The translations under genes were made by a program, and so were the position numbers. DNA of 64,000 nucleotides from an uncultured Poribacteria bacterium (GTDB taxonomy: Bacteria; Poribacteria; WGA-4E; WGA-3G), in assembly GCA_951813565.1 (NCBI GenBank), contig OX638351.1:2880001-2944000 (forward strand). The letters are read 5' to 3'. Of the stretch, positions 10,248 to 57,265 are shown piece by piece; positions within the stretch are counted from its first letter, which is position 1, and each line of letters begins with the position of its first letter. The notes under the pieces were generated by a model, which was not told the origin of the DNA, did no database searches, and worked only from the letters and a program-made list of their open reading frames with translations.

Positions 10248-10402
10248 AACCTAAGTTGCCACCTATTTGGCGAACGGTCTTGTGGGAGGGGTTTCTAACC
10301 CCGATTTATAACAGAAGACATACAGAATCAGCGAAAGATCCTTGTTTTTCACTAAAAAATAGTGCCAACCTGTTCAGAATTTTGTAGGTAGCAACTTAGG
10401 TT
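10248..10402. mobile_element. MITE-like element with an internal REP hairpin; second copy at 53291-53478
   Basis: TIRs AACCTAAGTTGCCACCTA / TAGGTAGCAACTTAGGTT; interior homologous to the second copy. Confidence 0.75.
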
Positions 10403-10546
10403 TATATAGTAAAACCTATAATTAATGGGACACTTCTGTAGCGTAAACTTTTAGTTTGCGTCTCATAGGGCACAAACTATAGTGAAACCTACAATTATTG
10501 ACACGCTATGTCCTAGTGGTAATTTCAAATATAGAATGTAAATGTA

Positions 10547-15464: not shown

Positions 15465-15670
15465 ATTTAATTTTCGCAGTCATCGGCTATAGGTTTTTAG
15501 TTCGTTAATTGTTGGGTTTCGCTTCGCTCTATCCAACAAAAATCCGAGAAAATCCGCCATTCAGGTAAATGTAAGAGGTGCAATGAATTGCGCGACTACG
15601 AATGCGTGAAATCAGGGTTGAAACCCCTCCCACAAGATGCGGACGGTACGCGGAGTGTGCCTGCTACTTT

Positions 15671-48584: not shown

Positions 48585-49490
48585 TTTGTAGGAGGGCTTT
48601 CTAAGCCCGATTTTATAGGGTGAGACTTACAAAGGTTTCCACACCTCCTGGTAGGCGCGTTTTGTAAACGCGCCGTTTATGGTGTCTTAAGTCAGTCTGG
48701 GTTGGACTCGGCGCGTTTACATGGAGATTAAGAAAATATTTCGGTAATTCTAATTTTTCCCAAACCCGGTAGGTGCGTTTTCCCAACCGCACTGGATCTT
48801 TCTCCAAAATTACCGAATTAATAAATTAATCTTCATCAAAGCGCGCCTACCGCTTGCGTATTTTACACGTAAGGTGGGTGTGTAAATATTTTAGCATTAA
48901 CCATGTTGCTTTTCTTGTAGGAGGGCTTTGTCCGCCCGATAAATTCAAATCAACGATGAATAGACTTGTAGTATTCATCGGGGTTGAAAACCCGCCAAAT
49001 GCCAAAAAGCGCATTTGGCGTTGATTTGGCAGCATGCCGGACGGGGAATGCCAAATGGTATTCATACCCGGTGAATGCCTAAAGACGAATGCGCCAAATC
49101 AACGGTCCGAATGCGCTTTGGCATTCCCCGTATGGCATTCGCCATGATTCATACCGTTGATTTCTTGATTTGGCGCATGCTGCGTTGATTTGGCTAAATG
49201 CCAAAGCGCATTTAGCGTTGATTCACTCCCACAAGAGGATATATCGATATATCCTAAAATTGACACCTATGGGTAGAGCGAAGCGAAACCCAACGATATA
49301 GGAGGCGCAATGAATCGCTCGACTACAAACGTTTCGCGAGCTGGAGCTTGTTCCTACAGGAAGAAAGAGGCGCAATGAATTGCGCGACTACAAACGCTGA
49401 TACTCTTAAAATCCGCGCCATCTGCGTAACCCGCGCTAATCCGTGATTCAGACAAAATTGAATTTCGCTTACGCTCTACCTAACCTACGA
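48585..49490. repeat. Dense cluster of GTAG-REP hairpins, MITE ends and nested micro-elements
   Basis: GTAGGAGGGCTTT, GTAGGCGCG, GGTAGGTGCG, GGGTAGAGCGAAGCGAAACCC and others. Confidence 0.8.
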
Positions 49491-49511
49491 ACTGCTTAGA
49501 CCAAGAAAAAT

Positions 49512-51257
49512 ATGTCTTTAGTAACAATAAACCGTGTAACAAAACGTTATGACCCAGACTTAATTCTGGACGATATTTCAGCCGCAATTGCGCCTGGAGA
49601 CCGAATTGGGTTAATTGGCCGTAACGGATGTGGAAAAACAACGTTACTTAAAATTATAGGCGGTATGCTCACCGATTTCAAAGGGAATGTCGTTCTGGCA
49701 AAGGGGCGACGTATGGGATACTTAAGCCAAGAACCGGAGTTGGAACATGACTGCACGTTACGCCAGGAAATGCTTAAGGTTTTTGAAGAACGGCTTGCCC
49801 TTGAAGATAAAATGCTCATGCTTGCAGAGGAGATGGAAAAACAAGAAACGCCACACTTCTTAGCGCAGTACGCGCGCATTCAGGAAAAGCATGAACAACT
49901 CGGCGGTTACGACTATGAACATCGGATAAATCGCGTACTTGGTGGTTTAGGTTTTATCGAACAGGACTTCAATTTACCGGTCAGCGTCCTGAGTGGCGGC
50001 CAAAAGAGTAGGGCGACGTTAGCAAAACTGCTCCTTGAAGAACCAGACTTGTTGCTTCTTGACGAACCGACGAATCACCTTGACATCAACGGAATTGAAT
50101 GGCTGGAAAATTATCTCAATACCGAATATAACGGTGGAGTCCTCGTTGTTTCTCACGATAGATTTTTTTTGGATAAAGTCGTTCGAAAGGTGTGGGAACT
50201 CACTGAAAATAAAATAAATATCTATCGAGGCAACTATTCCAAGTTCTTGGAAATTAAAAATGTTGAGCGACTCGTTGACCAACGCGCATTCAAAATACAA
50301 CAGGCGTTTATTGCACAGGAAGATAAGTTCATTGAGCGTAATATAGCCGGACAGCGGACTCGCGAAGCACAGGGAAGACGGAAAAAACTGGAACGGTTGG
50401 AAAAAGTTGAAAAACCGAAACCCGATGCGCCAACGTTGAAACTCAACTTCACACGAGGAACACGCGGTGGAGATGATATTCTACGTTGTCAAAACGTTAG
50501 CAAACAGTTTGGCGATAAGGTGTTATTCAAAAACCTGAGTTTTGACATCTACCGTGGTGATGTTGTCGGGATCATGGGACCGAACGGTACCGGAAAAACG
50601 ACACTTTTCCGAATGATTTTGGGGCAGGAACAACCCACGCAAGGCGACCTTTGGGTCGGTCCCGGCCTTAAACTTGGATATTATACGCAAGAATTGGAAG
50701 GGCTCAATCTGGATAATGAAATCATGCACGAAGTCTGGGCACTTTGTCCAGAGCAGACACAGCAGCAGGTTAGGAGTTTTTTAGCAAAATTCCTCTTTCG
50801 CGGGGATGACGTGTTTAAACAGATTGGAATCTTGAGTGGAGGTGAACAGAGCCGCGTTCAACTTGCGAAACTGCTATTGGAAAACGCTAATGTGCTTCTA
50901 CTTGATGAACCAACAAATCATCTGGATATTCCAGCACGCGAGGCACTCGAAAAAGCACTCGCCAGCTATCCCGCCACACAATTTATTATCTCTCATGACC
51001 GCTACCTTTTGAATAGTTTAGCGACTAAACTACTAATTTTTGACATCACAAAAGAGGGAACAGAAACACGCTTTTTCGAAGGCACCTATGCCGAATATGA
51101 AGCAGAGCAACAGAGACAAGTTGTTGATACAGAGCAGGAACACCAAGAGAATCAGCAATCTGAAAGTGTTCAAAACAGGACAACACCGAAACGAAATAAG
51201 TCAAAATCTAAGCGAAAACGGAAAATGAAGGCACAACGTTTGGTTGGAAGCAATTAA
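49512..51257 (+). CDS. ABC-F family ATPase
   Basis: Two ABC cassettes (GRNGCGKT, GPNGTGKT, LSGG, LDEPTNHLD); no TM segments. Confidence 0.95.
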   Translation: MSLVTINRVTKRYDPDLILDDISAAIAPGDRIGLIGRNGCGKTTLLKIIGGMLTDFKGNVVLAKGRRMGYLSQEPELEHDCTLRQEMLKVFEERLALEDKMLMLAEEMEKQETPHFLAQYARIQEKHEQLGGYDYEHRINRVLGGLGFIEQDFNLPVSVLSGGQKSRATLAKLLLEEPDLLLLDEPTNHLDINGIEWLENYLNTEYNGGVLVVSHDRFFLDKVVRKVWELTENKINIYRGNYSKFLEIKNVERLVDQRAFKIQQAFIAQEDKFIERNIAGQRTREAQGRRKKLERLEKVEKPKPDAPTLKLNFTRGTRGGDDILRCQNVSKQFGDKVLFKNLSFDIYRGDVVGIMGPNGTGKTTLFRMILGQEQPTQGDLWVGPGLKLGYYTQELEGLNLDNEIMHEVWALCPEQTQQQVRSFLAKFLFRGDDVFKQIGILSGGEQSRVQLAKLLLENANVLLLDEPTNHLDIPAREALEKALASYPATQFIISHDRYLLNSLATKLLIFDITKEGTETRFFEGTYAEYEAEQQRQVVDTEQEHQENQQSESVQNRTTPKRNKSKSKRKRKMKAQRLVGSN

Positions 51258-51301
51258 ATTCGGTAATTTTCTATAAAATTCCTCTTTTTCACACTTTTAA
51301 T

Positions 51302-51346
51302 TTGACATTCGTGAAAAATTAATATATAATTTATGTCGTATACGAC
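51302..51346 (+). promoter_or_regulatory. Sigma-70 promoter with a palindromic operator
   Basis: Exact TTGACA-N17-TATAAT, then GTCGTATACGAC at 51335-51346. Confidence 0.8.
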
Positions 51347-51379
51347 GGAATATACCTCTGACATAGGACGTATTTGAAA

Positions 51380-52258
51380 ATGTCTAAAAACCATGAGTTT
51401 AATCAAGAAATTGATGTTGTCATGCGTGTGATGCGTCATGCGCAAGCGGCAGTCAAATCAAGGTTTATACAGGAAGTTGTCCCCAGTCGCCTGACAATTG
51501 TCCAGTTCAATGCATTACAACATCTTCATTGGTATGGTCGAGAATCAGGCATGTCCGTCAGTGAGTTAGGTGAGCATTTAGGCCTTGCCCACAATACAGT
51601 CTCAGGCTTAGTCAGTCGGCTTGAGAAACATGGTTGGGTTGTCCGTCGTAAATGTGATAAAGATCGGAGGCGCGCCCGCATTCAACTAACACCGCAATCT
51701 GAACAACTTTTCCGAGAACGGGTGAAACACGCTACAGACTTTTGGCAACACACCTTTGGTCAACTTTCCACTGCAGATCAGGAAAACCTGATTGGGAGTC
51801 TAAAAAAGCTGAAACAGGTGATGGCAAAACCGGTGTGGCCAAGTTATGCACAGTTACACCCACGCGATGCGGACCATTTACGAGAAAAGTTTGAAACGGA
51901 ACTTGACGAACTTGCGCAAGCAAAACTAAAACTCGTCGGAATACGTTTAATTCTCGCCCGAATCGCGGAAAAACGGAATGAACACGAACTTGCTGCGTAC
52001 CTGAACCAAGCTGCCTCCGAAGAGATTCGACATACAAACCAGTTGTTCACACTACTCGGTCATGGTGAACATTTTGACAGACTTCTCTCGGCACTTATTG
52101 ATGAAGACCAGATTGTCTATGAGGAGTTGTTAACCTTACTTGATAATGCCCCATGTACAGAGGATGATGAAGAATTAAACCTGCTTCAACAAATGCTTCA
52201 AGATAGCCACAGATATAGACGATGGTTTCGCGATGTTCACAAGCAAACAAATCGGTGA
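51380..52258 (+). CDS. MarR regulator with a C-terminal ferritin/rubrerythrin-like domain
   Basis: 'HNTVSGLVSRLEKHGWV...DRR'; helical C-terminus with 'EEIRH'. Confidence 0.8.
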   Translation: MSKNHEFNQEIDVVMRVMRHAQAAVKSRFIQEVVPSRLTIVQFNALQHLHWYGRESGMSVSELGEHLGLAHNTVSGLVSRLEKHGWVVRRKCDKDRRRARIQLTPQSEQLFRERVKHATDFWQHTFGQLSTADQENLIGSLKKLKQVMAKPVWPSYAQLHPRDADHLREKFETELDELAQAKLKLVGIRLILARIAEKRNEHELAAYLNQAASEEIRHTNQLFTLLGHGEHFDRLLSALIDEDQIVYEELLTLLDNAPCTEDDEELNLLQQMLQDSHRYRRWFRDVHKQTNR

Positions 52259-52321
52259 CTTCTATTCTATCAACGGCGGTCTGAGTTTCAGTTTCCGGCC
52301 GATGACACTTAAGAGGAGAAC

Positions 52322-52936
52322 ATGCAGTCCCAAAGCCCCGAAAGTATTCCTCCAGCATGTAATGATGATGCCCAACTGATAGAACAATTTCAGAGCGGCG
52401 ATACGGATGTGTTTAATACACTCTTTACTCGCTACCAGAAACGCACTTATCGGTTAGTTCAGCGTTTTGTTCCTAATCATGAAGATGCCCTTGATATTAC
52501 GCAAGATGCGTTTATTCGCGCTTACCAAGGGCTGAGTGATTTTAAGAGCCAGTGCCAGTTCTATAGTTGGCTTTACCGAATTACAGTCAATCTCTGCATT
52601 GATTTTTTACGGAAAAAAGCGCGCTCGGAAGTGATGGTATACGAATCCGACGAATCGGATGAATTGCCGATGGCAAATTTCCCCGATTTACGTTCAGATT
52701 CTCCTGCCAAAGCTGCTGAGAATAAAGAACTCAGAGTCCAGATTCGGAAGGCGATTCGTCAGTTGCCGCCGAAGCAACGGCAAATTTTTATCCTGCGTCA
52801 CTGGGACGGATTATCCCTAAAAGATATTGCAACTGCGGTTGGCAGATCGGATGGAACAGTCAAAGCCCACCTGTTCCATGCACATCGTAATCTCCGCAAA
52901 CATCTACGTTCTTACCTGAAGGAATCAGATGTTTAA
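52322..52936 (+). CDS. ECF sigma factor
   Basis: 'DALDITQDAFIRAY', 'FYSWLYRITVN', 'GTVKAHLFHA'. Confidence 0.93.
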   Translation: MQSQSPESIPPACNDDAQLIEQFQSGDTDVFNTLFTRYQKRTYRLVQRFVPNHEDALDITQDAFIRAYQGLSDFKSQCQFYSWLYRITVNLCIDFLRKKARSEVMVYESDESDELPMANFPDLRSDSPAKAAENKELRVQIRKAIRQLPPKQRQIFILRHWDGLSLKDIATAVGRSDGTVKAHLFHAHRNLRKHLRSYLKESDV

Positions 52937-52971
52937 ATTGTTAGGATAAAAAGACATTTGTCCTCATTCTC

Positions 52972-53008
52972 CTAACCTTCCATGTTAATCCAAGATATGG
53001 AAGGTTAG
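52972..53008 (+). terminator. Hairpin downstream of the ECF sigma gene
   Basis: CTAACCTTCCAT / ATGGAAGGTTAG; weak U tract. Confidence 0.45.
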
Positions 53009-53137
53009 AAGAAGTCTATTCGCTTTTCCCTCCTTAAATTTATAGTGTTGTCCAGATTCTGAACCACAACTATTATTATTTGGACAGTTGACCCATCTAT
53101 CATAAGCAAGAATTACGATTGTTCTGCGATCCCGCGT

Positions 53138-53152
53138 TGGCACGAAATTTGC
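53138..53152 (+). promoter_or_regulatory. Sigma-54 promoter
   Basis: TGGCACGAAATTTGC. Confidence 0.78.
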
Positions 53153-53173
53153 TCTACCTTATAGCAATTAGTT

Positions 53174-53287
53174 TATAGTAAAATCCGAAAATATGTTTAC
53201 ATTTCAATGAACAACAATCCCGACACACTCGCGTTGGCGAGGTTTCCTAACCTCGCTAATGTTCAGGTAATTGTGGGTTTTACTATA
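53174..53287. mobile_element. 114-bp IS630-type MITE
   Basis: Left end TATAGTAAAATCCGAAAATATGTTTACA resembles the IS630 TIR; right end TTTTACTATA. Confidence 0.78.
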
Positions 53288-53290
53288 ATA

Positions 53291-53478
53291 AATCCAAGTT
53301 GCTACCTATTTCGTAAATTCTCTTGTAGGAGGGGTTTCTAACCCCGACAAATGCCAAAAAGCGCATTTGGCGTTGATTTGGATTTATAACAAAAGACATC
53401 CAGAATCAACGAAAAACCCTTGTTTTTTTAGGAAAACATCGTCTTTTGTTCAAAATTTTGCAAGTAGCAACTTGAGTT
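53291..53478. mobile_element. MITE homologous to 10248-10402, with a 33-bp insertion
   Basis: CAAGTTGCTAC / GTAGCAACTTG TIR core. Confidence 0.75.
53348..53380 (+). mobile_element. 33-bp micro-element
   Basis: Identical to 48996-49028; flanked by GA/GA; empty site in the paralogous repeat near 10300. Confidence 0.75.
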
Positions 53479-53482
53479 ATAA

Positions 53483-53708
53483 TAACGTGAATTTGATAAT
53501 TAGACCCAATGTAGATGTCCGTTGGGTAGAGCGAGCGAAACCCAACAATTCAACCGTCTTGGAAGTAATTTAAAGTTGGGTTTCACTCACTTTTCTGTTA
53601 TTTCGGCATCAAATGGAGAAAAAATCTCTCTTTTATGTCCGATTTTTTGTTTATTCCGTTCTACCCAACGGACAGTGGATATTGAATTTTATTATCAAAC
53701 TCACGTTA
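53483..53708. mobile_element. MITE with an internal REP pair
   Basis: TIRs TAACGTGAATTTGATAAT / ATTATCAAACTCACGTTA. Confidence 0.75.
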
Positions 53709-53733
53709 TAATAGCCATTTCAAGGAGATAAAA

Positions 53734-54702
53734 GTGAAACATATTCATACAGTGTTTGGGATAACGTTACTATTCAGTTTATTCCTGCTTGCTATAAACG
53801 CTTGGGGAGAACCATATATTTCTTTCTATTCTAACCGCACAGGGAATAGGGACATCTACATCATTGATACGAATGGTGAGAATCTCCGCAACCTCACAAA
53901 TCACCCCGCAAGCGATTGTTGTGCAACGTGGGCGCCAGATGGCCGATCTTTCGCTTTTATGTCGAGACGGGATGGAAAAGGTAATATCTATATCATGAAA
54001 GTTGGTGAAACTGAAGCGCGTCGATTGACAAACCATCCGGAGCAAGATTCGGCTCCTGCTTGGTCACCTGATGGGAAATGGATTGCTTTTCAATCCAATA
54101 GAACAGGGAAAAGTCAAATCTACAAAATAGATATCAATGGTAAGAATCTACAGCGGTTGACAAACCAGGGAAATAATTACACCCCGGCATGGTCTCCAGA
54201 CGGGAAATTAATTGCATTCTATTCTGATCAGAATGAATGGGGTGATGTCTATGTGATGGATTCAGACGGAAAAGGTGTCAGACGCATTAAAAACGAACAT
54301 GGTGGTGGGTCTCGGTCTCCTGCTTGGTCTCCTGATGGGAAACAAATTGCCTTTGATATTTCCAGACAAGGAAACGGTATCTTCATTATGGATGTAGATG
54401 GAGGAAATTCCCGCCGCATGTCACCGCCTTTGAATTGGAGCTACAATCCTGCGTGGTCTCCTGATGATAAGTGGATTGCCTACGAGGCAGAAATTGAAAA
54501 TCCTTGGGGAAACCCCAATGTGGATAAAAATATATATATTGTCTCTGTCAAGAGTGGCAAGCGGCTACAAATCACACACCATCCTGGGCAAAATGGTGAG
54601 CCTGCATGGGTCCCCGAAGGTTTTTTCTCCGTTTCCCCTACTGCAAACACTAAAACGACACTTTGGGGTAGATTAAAGCAAACTGAACCTGTGGCGCAGT
54701 AA
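53734..54702 (+). CDS. Secreted TolB-like (PD40) propeller protein with a TWG-like tail
   Basis: 'PAWSPDGK' repeats; 'SVSPTANTKTTLWGRLK'. Confidence 0.88.
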   Translation: MKHIHTVFGITLLFSLFLLAINAWGEPYISFYSNRTGNRDIYIIDTNGENLRNLTNHPASDCCATWAPDGRSFAFMSRRDGKGNIYIMKVGETEARRLTNHPEQDSAPAWSPDGKWIAFQSNRTGKSQIYKIDINGKNLQRLTNQGNNYTPAWSPDGKLIAFYSDQNEWGDVYVMDSDGKGVRRIKNEHGGGSRSPAWSPDGKQIAFDISRQGNGIFIMDVDGGNSRRMSPPLNWSYNPAWSPDDKWIAYEAEIENPWGNPNVDKNIYIVSVKSGKRLQITHHPGQNGEPAWVPEGFFSVSPTANTKTTLWGRLKQTEPVAQ

Positions 54703-55019
54703 GATCGATCTTATATCAATTGATCCCACTTTGTAAGCGCGCTTACTGTCCTGATAAATAACCCACATGTGTCAATTAACGGTACTCCACCCCGGTAGAT
54801 GCGGTTTCCTAACCGCATCGGGCTTATGCAAGTGCTGTTAGCCTCAGTTTTCTGTTTTTACACCACTGTTTGAAGGATGCTAAAGATGGAAGGTTTTCGT
54901 GTCCGATACGGAGCGGTTAGGAACCACTCCTACCGGGCCTAGGGTTGAGCGTGTTGTGTTTTTTAAATTGATGCCTATGGTTTGCAAAAATGCAGCACAT
55001 ATACAAACGAAATTGTCGG

Positions 55020-56015
55020 CTACGTTTCCACGGTCTCTTCTGTTGCAAAGAGTGCTTCAACGAAATCAGCACCTGCGAAATCACGTAAGTCATCAAGTTT
55101 TTCACCAATTCCGATTAATTTGACAGGAGCACCGAGTTCGGCTTTTACCGCTAACACTATCCCGCCTTTAGCTGTGCCATCCAGTTTTGTAATTGCTACA
55201 CCTGTAATCGGTACAGCTTCGTTGAAAATTTTTGCTTGCATCAGTGCGTTTTGTCCCACTGTGCCGTCAATGACAAGTAACACCTCGTGAGGCGCGCCTG
55301 TATGTGCTTGCTCCATCACCCGTCCGATTTTTGATAGTTCATCCATCAACGGTTTTTTGGTATGGAGTCTGCCTGCTGTATCCACAATCAGCACATCGGT
55401 TTCTCTATTTTTTGCAGCGTGAACTGCATCAAAAATCACCGAAGCGGGTTCAGCTTTTTCCCCACCACGAATTATTTCTGCTCCCGCGCGTTCGCACCAA
55501 ATTGCCAATTGATCTTCTGCAGCAGCACGAAATGTATCGCCTGCGGCAACAAGAACACGGTTACCATCAGCCTTGAATCGACTTGCGAGTTTACCGATAG
55601 TTGTCGTTTTTCCTGCCCCGTTAACACCGAGGACTAAAATCGTATAAGGCGGTTCACCTTCAAACTCCAACGGAACGTCTTCACCGAGTAGATTAAGAAT
55701 TTCCTCTTTTATGACTGTTTCCAATTCGGAAGAATCACCCAACCCTCTTGCTTTCACAGTCTCTCTAACGTTGTCCATTAGCGTCAGCGTCGTGTCAACC
55801 CCCACGTCTGCTTGGATTAAAATTTCTTCGATCTCCTCCATTAGTTCTTCGTCAATTTTTCTACCAACACGAAGTAGCCCCGACAGCTGAGAGAGAAAAC
55901 GGTTTCGCGTTTTCGCCAAACCAGACTTGAGGCGATTAAACCAATTCTCTTTTTCCTCTGTAGCCTCCGGTTCAACGGGGTTTTTATCACCACCTTTAAA
56001 TAAGTTCCTGAGCAT
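55020..56015 (-). CDS. ftsY: Signal recognition particle receptor
   Basis: 'GVNGAGKTTT', 'DTFRAAA', 'DTAGR', 'TKLDGTAKGG'. Confidence 0.97.
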   Translation of the reverse strand: MLRNLFKGGDKNPVEPEATEEKENWFNRLKSGLAKTRNRFLSQLSGLLRVGRKIDEELMEEIEEILIQADVGVDTTLTLMDNVRETVKARGLGDSSELETVIKEEILNLLGEDVPLEFEGEPPYTILVLGVNGAGKTTTIGKLASRFKADGNRVLVAAGDTFRAAAEDQLAIWCERAGAEIIRGGEKAEPASVIFDAVHAAKNRETDVLIVDTAGRLHTKKPLMDELSKIGRVMEQAHTGAPHEVLLVIDGTVGQNALMQAKIFNEAVPITGVAITKLDGTAKGGIVLAVKAELGAPVKLIGIGEKLDDLRDFAGADFVEALFATEETVET

Positions 56016-56291
56016 CCATTTCTCCTTTATTCAAATGACCTATTTTTTACACATTATCTGGCTATGTTTGGTTTGAATGTATCCATATCATATAATACAG
56101 TAACAGATGTCTGAATGACAAATAAAAATAGATGTACCTGGTAATCGACTTACGGTTATGATATTGAAATGTAAAACAATTTGTAGCCTTTGACGTTGTA
56201 GTTCAAAACTCAGATACAGAATATAAATTATCTATTGCTATAATTGCCTTTTTGTAGTATATTAAAGGCATGTTAAATGAGGAGGCTTACA

Positions 56292-56879
56292 ATGAAAAGC
56301 AGAAGACTTGATAGTTCATTTCTGAGCGCGTTTTTCGGTATTGCTATTGTGCTAATTCCTTGCATGATCTTGACTTCCTGTGTGGAGGAACAGCAATTAG
56401 AGGAACTTGTTCAGGAAACGAATAAGGAAGAAATAGAGCAGGAGATTGTTGAACCTGAAGAACCGGTTGTCGCACTTCCGGGGCTCCCTGAAGATGTCGC
56501 AGGTTATGAACGTTGGCTTAAATTAAACGCCGAACCAATTCCGCCGGTAGCAGGCGGTGATCCACACAACGGCACAAAGAATGTATATGTTAACCAAGCA
56601 CGGGATACTATTGCACCTGATGGCGAGCAACAATTCCCATATCCTGATGGAAGCATAGTCGTAAAAGAAGCATTCCGACCAAATAAGGACTATGTGGGAC
56701 TCATCGCAATTATGCGCAAAAAAGCAGGAACTGATCCAGACCATAATGATTGGGAGTTCATTGAATATACCCGAAACGACCCTGATGCCGATTTTAACGT
56801 TATAGCCTCCGGCAGAATATGTTGGAGTTGTCATGCCAGAGTCGAAGACATAGACTATGTTTTTACGGAACTTGACTGA
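56292..56879 (+). CDS. Cytochrome P460/c'-beta family lipoprotein
   Basis: Lipobox 'LTSC'; 'YPDGSIVVKE'; C-terminal 'CWSCH...DYVF'. Confidence 0.8.
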   Translation: MKSRRLDSSFLSAFFGIAIVLIPCMILTSCVEEQQLEELVQETNKEEIEQEIVEPEEPVVALPGLPEDVAGYERWLKLNAEPIPPVAGGDPHNGTKNVYVNQARDTIAPDGEQQFPYPDGSIVVKEAFRPNKDYVGLIAIMRKKAGTDPDHNDWEFIEYTRNDPDADFNVIASGRICWSCHARVEDIDYVFTELD

Positions 56880-56882
56880 TAT

Positions 56883-57006
56883 CATAGTGAATTATAAAGA
56901 TAAATTGACATGTTGCCGCTACATACAGCGGGAATTCCATTTTGGTAGGCGAGGTTTCCTAACCTCGCTTGTTCAGAGTGTCTCGTTAATTCTAAAATCT
57001 ACTACA
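56883..57006. mobile_element. Degenerate IS630-type MITE with a REP
   Basis: CATAGTGAA...TCTACTACA ends; GTAGGCGAGGTTTCCTAACCTCGC inside. Confidence 0.55.
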
Positions 57007-57012
57007 AATAAG

Positions 57013-57265
57013 GGTGTGCATAAATATTTGGCGCATCAACACAGACAGGGACAGACGCCATGTGCCGCTTGATTTATAGAAATGCGTTTGTAGTCGCGCA
57101 ATTCATTGCCAAATCAACGCAGCATGCGCCAAATCAACGGTCCGAATGCCTTATGGCATTCCCCGTGTGGCATGCTGCGCCTCTTTGAACTTGTGGGCGG
57201 AAACCCACGGCGTATGCGGACTACCTTTAAGCGCATATTTAACATCGGAATTATTTATGCACACC
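57013..57265. mobile_element. MITE containing an interrupted REP
   Basis: Perfect 14-bp TIR GGTGTGCATAAATA. Confidence 0.7.

Follow-up and report, generated by a model that had tools for sequence, protein, structure and literature searches.

A nesting hairpin-and-tail insertion unit of 34-36 nucleotides in palindromes of a Poribacteria genus, and the possibility that it exploits REP-associated transposases

Among described elements, the closest to the one considered here are the small dispersed repeats (SDR1-8) of Nostocaceae that Elhai et al. are said to have described in 2008. SDRs are 21-27 nt long, nest within themselves, show compensatory changes in their stems and have no known mover. 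SDR5 inserts between bases 3 and 4 of the palindrome HIP1, according to the available part of one source (PMC4390886), and among HIP1-rich genomes SDRs are reported only from Nostocaceae in the available part of another (PMC5861425). How repeats of fewer than 40 bases move in bacteria is an unresolved question, and it is raised again by a comparably small element, here called family 1, that lies at three loci (near positions 48994, 53346 and 57110) of a 64,000-nucleotide stretch of contig OX638351.1 of an uncultured Poribacteria bacterium. We refer to this whole stretch as the window. Family 1 is found in repetitive extragenic palindromes (REPs), of which the GTAG and CGTC types are defined by their terminal tetranucleotide (PMC3733652, in part). 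A hairpin with a single-stranded tail has been given as the excision product of the paired REP elements known as REPINs (PMC3116915, in part), and the action on natural cargo of the REP-associated tyrosine transposases (RAYTs) has barely been shown in vivo.

Family 1 is almost certainly a real insertion unit, which has spread both by repeated insertion and by the copying of larger blocks. It is a structure-conserved, non-autonomous element below the usual size of MITEs (miniature transposable elements with inverted repeats), it nests in REPs and in itself, and it is among the smallest mobile-looking DNAs. Its consensus is 5'-C-[9-10 bp stem, C-W-N-N-(N)-G-C loop]-G-TTGATT-Y(N)-3', non-coding and 34-36 nt long. 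The stem is closed by the base that precedes the unit, almost without exception a C, to give the form C-[stem-loop]-G-TTGATT-Y(N). The left end is precise and the right end ragged by 1-2 nt. Beside the hairpin stands a tag of 8-9 nt, (CA)AATCAAC (GTTGATT on the other strand), whose invariant TTGATT (at 57110-57116 and in all units) points outward from the unit and resembles a -35 promoter hexamer. A search of Rfam gave nothing at gathering score and just two sub-threshold matches to microRNAs, and a search of the literature (with most subscription journals outside its scope) found no description of this element.

Pairing in the stem has been kept while its sequence has changed, as the preliminary description of the window had proposed: stem pairs 3, 4, 5 and 8 are Watson-Crick in 92-97% of cases in 416 units, against means of 41-79% in shuffled sets (only the inner motif was fixed in this test, and the shuffles ignore relatedness among units). 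Among 112 distinct stems the covariation is weaker, yet it exceeds the shuffle maxima. Stem pair 2 accepts A.G.

The genome that carries the window (G000; 5.43 Mb, a single contig) is rich in these units. Far from the scarcity of copies that the preliminary description had allowed for, there are about 570 overall: a strict hairpin-plus-tail pattern gives 318 matches, with none in a reversed-sequence control, and looser patterns give 574-648 units. The 33-mer described as identical at 48996 and 53348 is indeed so, and has 59 exact copies in the genome. Hardly any units lie within genes (8 of 550 are inside open reading frames of at least 150 amino acids (aa), though such frames cover 78% of the genome), and 483 of 574 lie no more than 45 nt from a REP tag or another unit, as against 32% of random non-coding sites. 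There is no replichore bias (445 vs 494 of 939). Elsewhere in the genus the family is present in 34 of 36 other genomes (0-306 copies, so that the range across the genus is 0 to 318), and it is absent from all 24 genomes examined from other families; a relaxed pattern gave only background outside the genus, including other families of the order. In a scan of species-representative genomes, among the loci listed (at least 116), 115 were titled Candidatus Poribacteria and one 'uncultured bacterium'. Matches in viral contigs look like chance, with 2 of 120 having four of the five outer stem pairs and neither of these having the family loop.

The way in which units join their targets was read from 7.7 Mb holding 892 units, made up of G000 and, from four relatives, loci and 1.6 Mb of sequence. 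Empty sites were sought by exact 10-nt flanks, and are paralogues rather than true pre-insertion alleles; units without an empty match, and those flanked on the left by another unit's tail, were left out. From 93 junction classes, two were dropped as tandem and eight for a mismatch on the left, leaving 83 classes (374 copies), each of which may stem from a single event. The closing C was counted as part of the unit in this tally. The left flank ends in CC in 64 of the 83 classes and in GG in 11 (75 together), and one target base is replaced in 65. Clean C^G insertions, in which the replaced base is itself C and the unit has a TG end before G, account for 33 classes and 227 of the 374 copies; the remaining 50 classes change the target sequence. 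There are 23 classes at C|T steps, and 12 of them, at CC|TAC, turn CC-TAC into CC-C[unit]C-AC (26 copies, in five REP contexts and several genomes). When distinct left contexts are compared, 26 of 32 end in CC or GG, as against 123 of 731 nearby positions (17%), and these 32 contexts show little mutual homology, while the left end and the length of 34-36 nt stay constant. The sites entered are GTAG/GTGG REP palindromes and the unit's own loop, tail foot and left junction. In tandem runs the last unit keeps the site-specific end and the preceding units end in TG, a pattern which suggests that such runs grow at a regenerated left junction. A noisy search of these REP steps for inserts of other kinds gave no support for general RAYT hotspots among the inserts listed.

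No target duplication was found at insertions. The GC/GC and GA/GA flanks that had been taken for 2-bp duplications are coincidental, the first two bases of a unit being the same as the two following it in only 84 of 424 simple units. When measured against empty paralogues, the units that had been put at 33 and 67 bp are real repeats of 35 bp (48994-49028 and 53346-53380) and 69 bp (the nested minus-strand unit at 57110-57178, 34+35). Likewise, what had been supposed to be empty sites (10300, 10547, 49366 and 15611) are paralogous repeats of the same families and not empty alleles of these loci, and the REP at 15611 differs from the one split at 48994, of which it had been thought the intact form. 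The central proposal, of a self-nesting, REP-invading element smaller than typical MITEs, is upheld by the many copies and by the filled and empty paralogues. The features at the three loci are as follows.

48978..48993, plus strand: left part of the host REP (GTGG/GTAG type, in inverted orientation); when it is put back together with 49226-49238, the genome shows 8 exact copies of the uninterrupted sequence.
48994..49028, plus strand: family-1 unit U1, 35 bp, with a TG end; the C at 48993 closes its stem.
49029..49192, plus strand: family-1 unit U2, 34 bp, split in its loop (49029-49042 + 49173-49192); the rejoined form has 7 exact copies.
49043..49172, plus strand: bulged family-1 unit U3, split at its tail foot (49043-49068 + 49165-49172); one target G is missing at the split, and 73 uninterrupted copies of this junction have it.
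49069..49164, plus strand: bulged family-1 unit U4 (49069-49083 + 49147-49164), with a C start and a TC end; 4 bases are replaced by the family-2 unit, and comparison with uninterrupted junctions (5 copies) gives this 4-base gap in all.
49084..49146, minus strand: family-2 unit, CAT plus hairpin, 28 bp, split in its loop (49084-49094 + 49130-49146); the rejoined form has 8 exact copies.
49095..49129, minus strand: bulged family-1 unit U6, 35 bp, inverted, within the loop of the family-2 unit.
49193..49225, plus strand: family-1 unit U5, 33 bp, with a CA end, the class found at this REP type.
49226..49238, plus strand: right part of the host REP.
53290..53480, no strand assigned: MITE-like module of about 190 bp that carries a REP and the 53346 unit; its terminal repeat matches an element of G000 of the IS982 family of insertion sequences (ISs).
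53346..53380, plus strand: family-1 unit, 35 bp, a clean C^G insertion at the 3' foot of a GTAG REP.
57110..57178, minus strand: family-1 unit of 34 bp whose loop holds a bulged family-1 unit of 35 bp (57130-57164), at the C^G of a GTAG REP.

The stack at 48994-49225, described earlier as about 232 bp of nested units splitting a REP, is exactly that, except that it comprises two families rather than one: it resolves without remainder into seven units, six of family 1 (one of them inverted) and one, of 28 bp, of family 2. As a whole it is unique in the genome, and we infer that this REP site was first entered by U5. Of the three loci, at least two did not arise by insertion in place but came as preassembled blocks. 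The 53346 unit rides an IS982-derived MITE, the module at 53290..53480, which has three filled copies genome-wide and an empty version at about 10250-10410; four relatives lack the entire surrounding block of about 550 bp. The 57110 block, including its flanks, has nine identical copies in the genome, and of the 235 copies of the REP that it splits, 93 are interrupted at this one step. Many present copies have been multiplied in this way, carried along by REP arrays and by MITEs derived from ISs (blocks that are present at least twice hold 149 of the 574 units), so copy number overstates the count of insertion events. The genes flanking the 48994 locus are not adjacent in any of five relatives, and the spacer at 57110 failed to align in any of five (a comparison by alignment only). 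No orthologous empty allele came to light for any of the three loci.

The spacers in the window are mosaics of MITEs carrying REPs. A second MITE-like module, at 53473-53706, has ends that match another IS982-family element and a 97% copy at G000:C1:925524, and the spacer at 48860-48880 and 57000-57030 resembles the terminal repeat of an ISKra4-family element of G000 (about 20 copies), a likeness which may point to further MITEs. The genes around the loci are ordinary (beta-propeller, ABC ATPase, MarR, ECF sigma, PD40 protein, SRP54-type GTPase, P460 cytochrome, porin). Elsewhere in the genome, at G000:C1:4893908 and 1460155, some forms read symmetrically tail-hairpin-tail, and hairpins without a tail join two halves of a REP; these are probably recombinants of oppositely oriented units.

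What moves the unit? We tentatively favour a route, which we rate at a little under an even chance, in which it moves as single-stranded DNA joined at breaks made in REPs by RAYTs; in the preliminary description, movement in trans through single-stranded DNA or RNA had been suggested, and of the two the RNA route is disfavoured. The unit would travel as single-stranded DNA and exploit the breaks made by the REP-associated HUH transposase (RAYT, or TnpA-REP). The 3'-OH of the target would be joined to the hairpin foot of the unit, giving the precise first junction; the far junction would be closed less exactly, with loss of the enzyme-bearing base and with 1-2 nt of donor flank carried along. 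Since insertion would rebuild CCC^G at the left junction, tandem runs could extend from that side. The unit would, in effect, be a parasite of the REP/RAYT system. For the TnpA-REP of E. coli the cut site in the inverted REP is given as CC|TAC, with CC|T as consensus, and degradation of ends by host nucleases is allowed for in the same account (PMC3333891, in part); elsewhere RAYT cuts are shown at C|T and C|A, and also at C|C when the guide is GTGG (PMC8266576, in part). One major insertion step of family 1, as read from sequence, coincides with this in vitro site, CC|TAC.

The distribution of enzymes and targets is consistent with such a route. G000 has ten matches to Y1 transposases, of which three are RAYTs over the cut-off (one of them with a stop), and its RAYT genes are flanked by the REP families that the units invade. 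Over the 36 genus genomes, copy number tracks one GTAG REP family (Spearman rho 0.53), and the profile of co-occurring enzymes that had been proposed as a check shows that it also tracks the presence of RAYTs (median 25 copies in 23 genomes with a RAYT vs 5 in 13 without) and not that of reverse transcriptases. In both unit-free genomes that REP is near background and there is no RAYT over the cut-off. Each RAYT gene of the genus at L176-L198 is flanked by its own GTAG REP family, so that there are many natural RAYT/REP pairs, and one unit lies upstream of the RAYT gene at G000:C1:242023-242493 (L010).

Several points tell against this route. The largest junction class, C^G, is absent from the RAYT cut sites in the available parts of the two papers (PMC3333891, PMC8266576). 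In five classes the left flank ends in GG and the step contains no C, which breaks a strict model in which all cuts lie 3' of C; this model had fitted the first tables, and failed on the GG|T, GG|A and GG|G classes in the added genomes. HUH strand transfer is not known to involve the loss of a target base. None of the RAYTs seen has the unit as its cognate palindrome, and a unit lies within about 1.7 kb at only 3 of 23 RAYT loci. No RAYT over the cut-off was found in G063 (216 relaxed-pattern matches) or G014 (45 copies), and RAYTs occur also in other families, which lack the unit. The correlation with REPs and RAYTs is equally expected under hitchhiking, and it treats related genomes as independent; finally, the junction classes may come from few events.

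A reading that needs no dedicated enzyme is unlikely. In it, the insertions would have been generated where REP hairpins stalled or broke, by gene conversion or by a switch of template during replication, guided by 1-5 bases of microhomology, with spread thereafter mostly as cargo. The ragged right end and the small target loss fit this, as do the tail-hairpin-tail and tailless chimaeras, if these arose by recombination through the palindromic stem, and the block-copied units, including those at 53346 and 57110. However, an exact left end and a length of 34-36 nt recur at 32 left contexts with little mutual homology, and stem pairing is kept while sequence changes, as if a protein reads the fold.

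It is improbable, but conceivable, that the mover is an unrecognised or lost protein, and that an autonomous element outside the genomes searched has the unit as its minimal end. Among the 26 multi-copy gene families examined in G000 no terminus is like the unit, and copy number ranges across the genus from 0 to 318; but no longer element with these ends was seen, and the matches in viral contigs are, as noted above, chance-like.

Movement through RNA, too, we regard as distinctly improbable. The strand bearing tag and hairpin could be a decay product of a small RNA (with a ragged 5' leader and a blunt 3' stem), copied by a reverse transcriptase onto a broken DNA end. The precise left and ragged right ends, the lack of duplication and the small deletions would fit primed synthesis of complementary DNA, and G000 has both a CRISPR-linked (clustered regularly interspaced short palindromic repeats) reverse transcriptase and a Drt4 antiviral one (L012:1066-2598). 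However, the domain RVT_1 is unmatched in 20 of 36 genus genomes, including G006 (306 copies), G012 (118), G034 (80) and the single-contig G017 (44), and median copy number is 16.5 with a reverse transcriptase vs 23 without. Nor is there a bias towards the mRNA strand (131 vs 109), and G.T mismatches in the stem favour no single strand (51 vs 36). The CRISPR arrays of G000 are three (G000:C1:1198128-1201311, 2830674-2832379 and 3992476-3996451); two are near cas1, in one case with the adjacent reverse transcriptase, and no cas1 was found near the array at 2830674. Their repeats are other than the unit, and a repeat-like motif gave at most four scattered hits in each of 60 genomes, so that an origin from CRISPR repeats is rejected.

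Very doubtful, finally, is a site-specific recombinase, whether the genus-wide 200-aa tyrosine recombinase acting on folded single-stranded DNA in the manner of an integron integrase, or an IS607 serine recombinase acting at a GG/CC core. Integron attC sites have paired boxes, RYYYAAC/GTTRRRY, and the unit, reading C-hairpin-GTT..., resembles the bottom strand of an attC site after cutting. In one REP family the insertions that lie 3' of GG and those that lie 3' of CC are on either side of the same two base pairs, a short tyrosine recombinase is found widely across the genus, and there are three IS607 genes in G000. Against this, no common core is found at both junctions, and IS607 ends are unlike the unit. 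The only tyrosine recombinase of G000 (L142:1444-2067; G000:C1:4771411-4771926), a protein of 207 aa without the N-terminal domain, scores 38 bits against an integron-integrase cut-off of 265 bits and has no unit beside its gene, and a similar short recombinase occurs in the unit-free G025. An attC or cassette origin is rejected on that score, and because the left flanks are CC/GG and not the inverse core. Most genomes of the genus have similar matches of about 200 aa, whereas the proteins of families f2 and f3 are XerC/D-like and about 304 aa long. Short forms (206-279 aa, mostly starting MKGTRPL) in several genus genomes (L212-L231) include three close to Y1/RAYT genes and REP arrays; at 20 loci in other genomes that have mobile short tyrosine recombinases there were no unit-like ends.

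Other candidates can be dismissed briefly. An IS110 mover was sought as PF02371 in one genome and as PF01548 in five (G000 and four other high-copy genomes), with positive controls and genomes 92-96% complete, and none was found; there is no Ku in five genomes; no likeness to the unit was seen among the IS ends of the 26 multi-copy families of G000; and IS91-type Y2 transposases gave no match in five genomes, a search in which the control was also blank.

Family 2 gives the favoured RAYT route a possible wider setting. Its members, CAT with a similar hairpin, are 28 nt long, insert after ..AAT and replace four target bases where an empty site was found. Both families start AATCA on the tag strand and have a common ATGC/GCAT core, and these shared features would then be a general recognition signal. 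It is possible, if on the doubtful side, that there is a class of single-stranded DNA 'hyperparasites' of less than 40 nt that hijack RAYT nicks, of which the AATCA-tagged 34-36-mer replaces the nicked base, rebuilds its target and builds polar arrays. Were such a class real, it would provide a first mechanism for SDR-like elements; and if RAYTs do join this cargo at CC|T, family 1 would be a DNA insertion unit of very small size that makes no duplication, and the mosaic make-up of the spacers in these symbiont genomes would be explained. Family 1 offers dozens of filled and empty junction classes, a minimal substrate, and a candidate enzyme with its cognate REPs in one genome, and with these the question of the mover becomes testable.

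How, then, does family 1 compare with known systems? It is non-autonomous and dispersed like a MITE, and one copy lies physically inside one, but it has no terminal inverted repeats matching an IS (among 26 multi-copy families) and no target duplication, and it is several-fold shorter. IS110/IS1111 elements target REPs with precise insertion, and family 1 also inserts precisely into REP palindromes, although without an IS110 gene in G000 or the four other high-copy genomes and without a duplicated core. In its unpaired tag beside a short imperfect hairpin, its intergenic location and its hundreds of copies it resembles REPs, bacterial interspersed mosaic elements (BIMEs) and REPINs; its tag, however, is AATCAAC/GTTGATT rather than GTAG or CGTC, it is a single hairpin that inserts into REPs and not a doublet, and, whereas the RAYT genes are flanked by GTAG REPs, family 1 is not their cognate flanking repeat. 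It differs from the SDRs in being 34-36 nt rather than under about 30 nt long (family 2, at 28 nt, is not), in having GTAG REPs rather than HIP1 as its target, in its poribacterial host and in its replacement of one target base. Nevertheless, a tiny dispersed repeat at a fixed step of a palindromic target has its precedent in what is reported of SDR5 and HIP1, and both fixed-step insertion into palindromes and nesting are found in family 1 so that, compared by description and not by sequence, it would seem to work like the SDRs of Nostocaceae.

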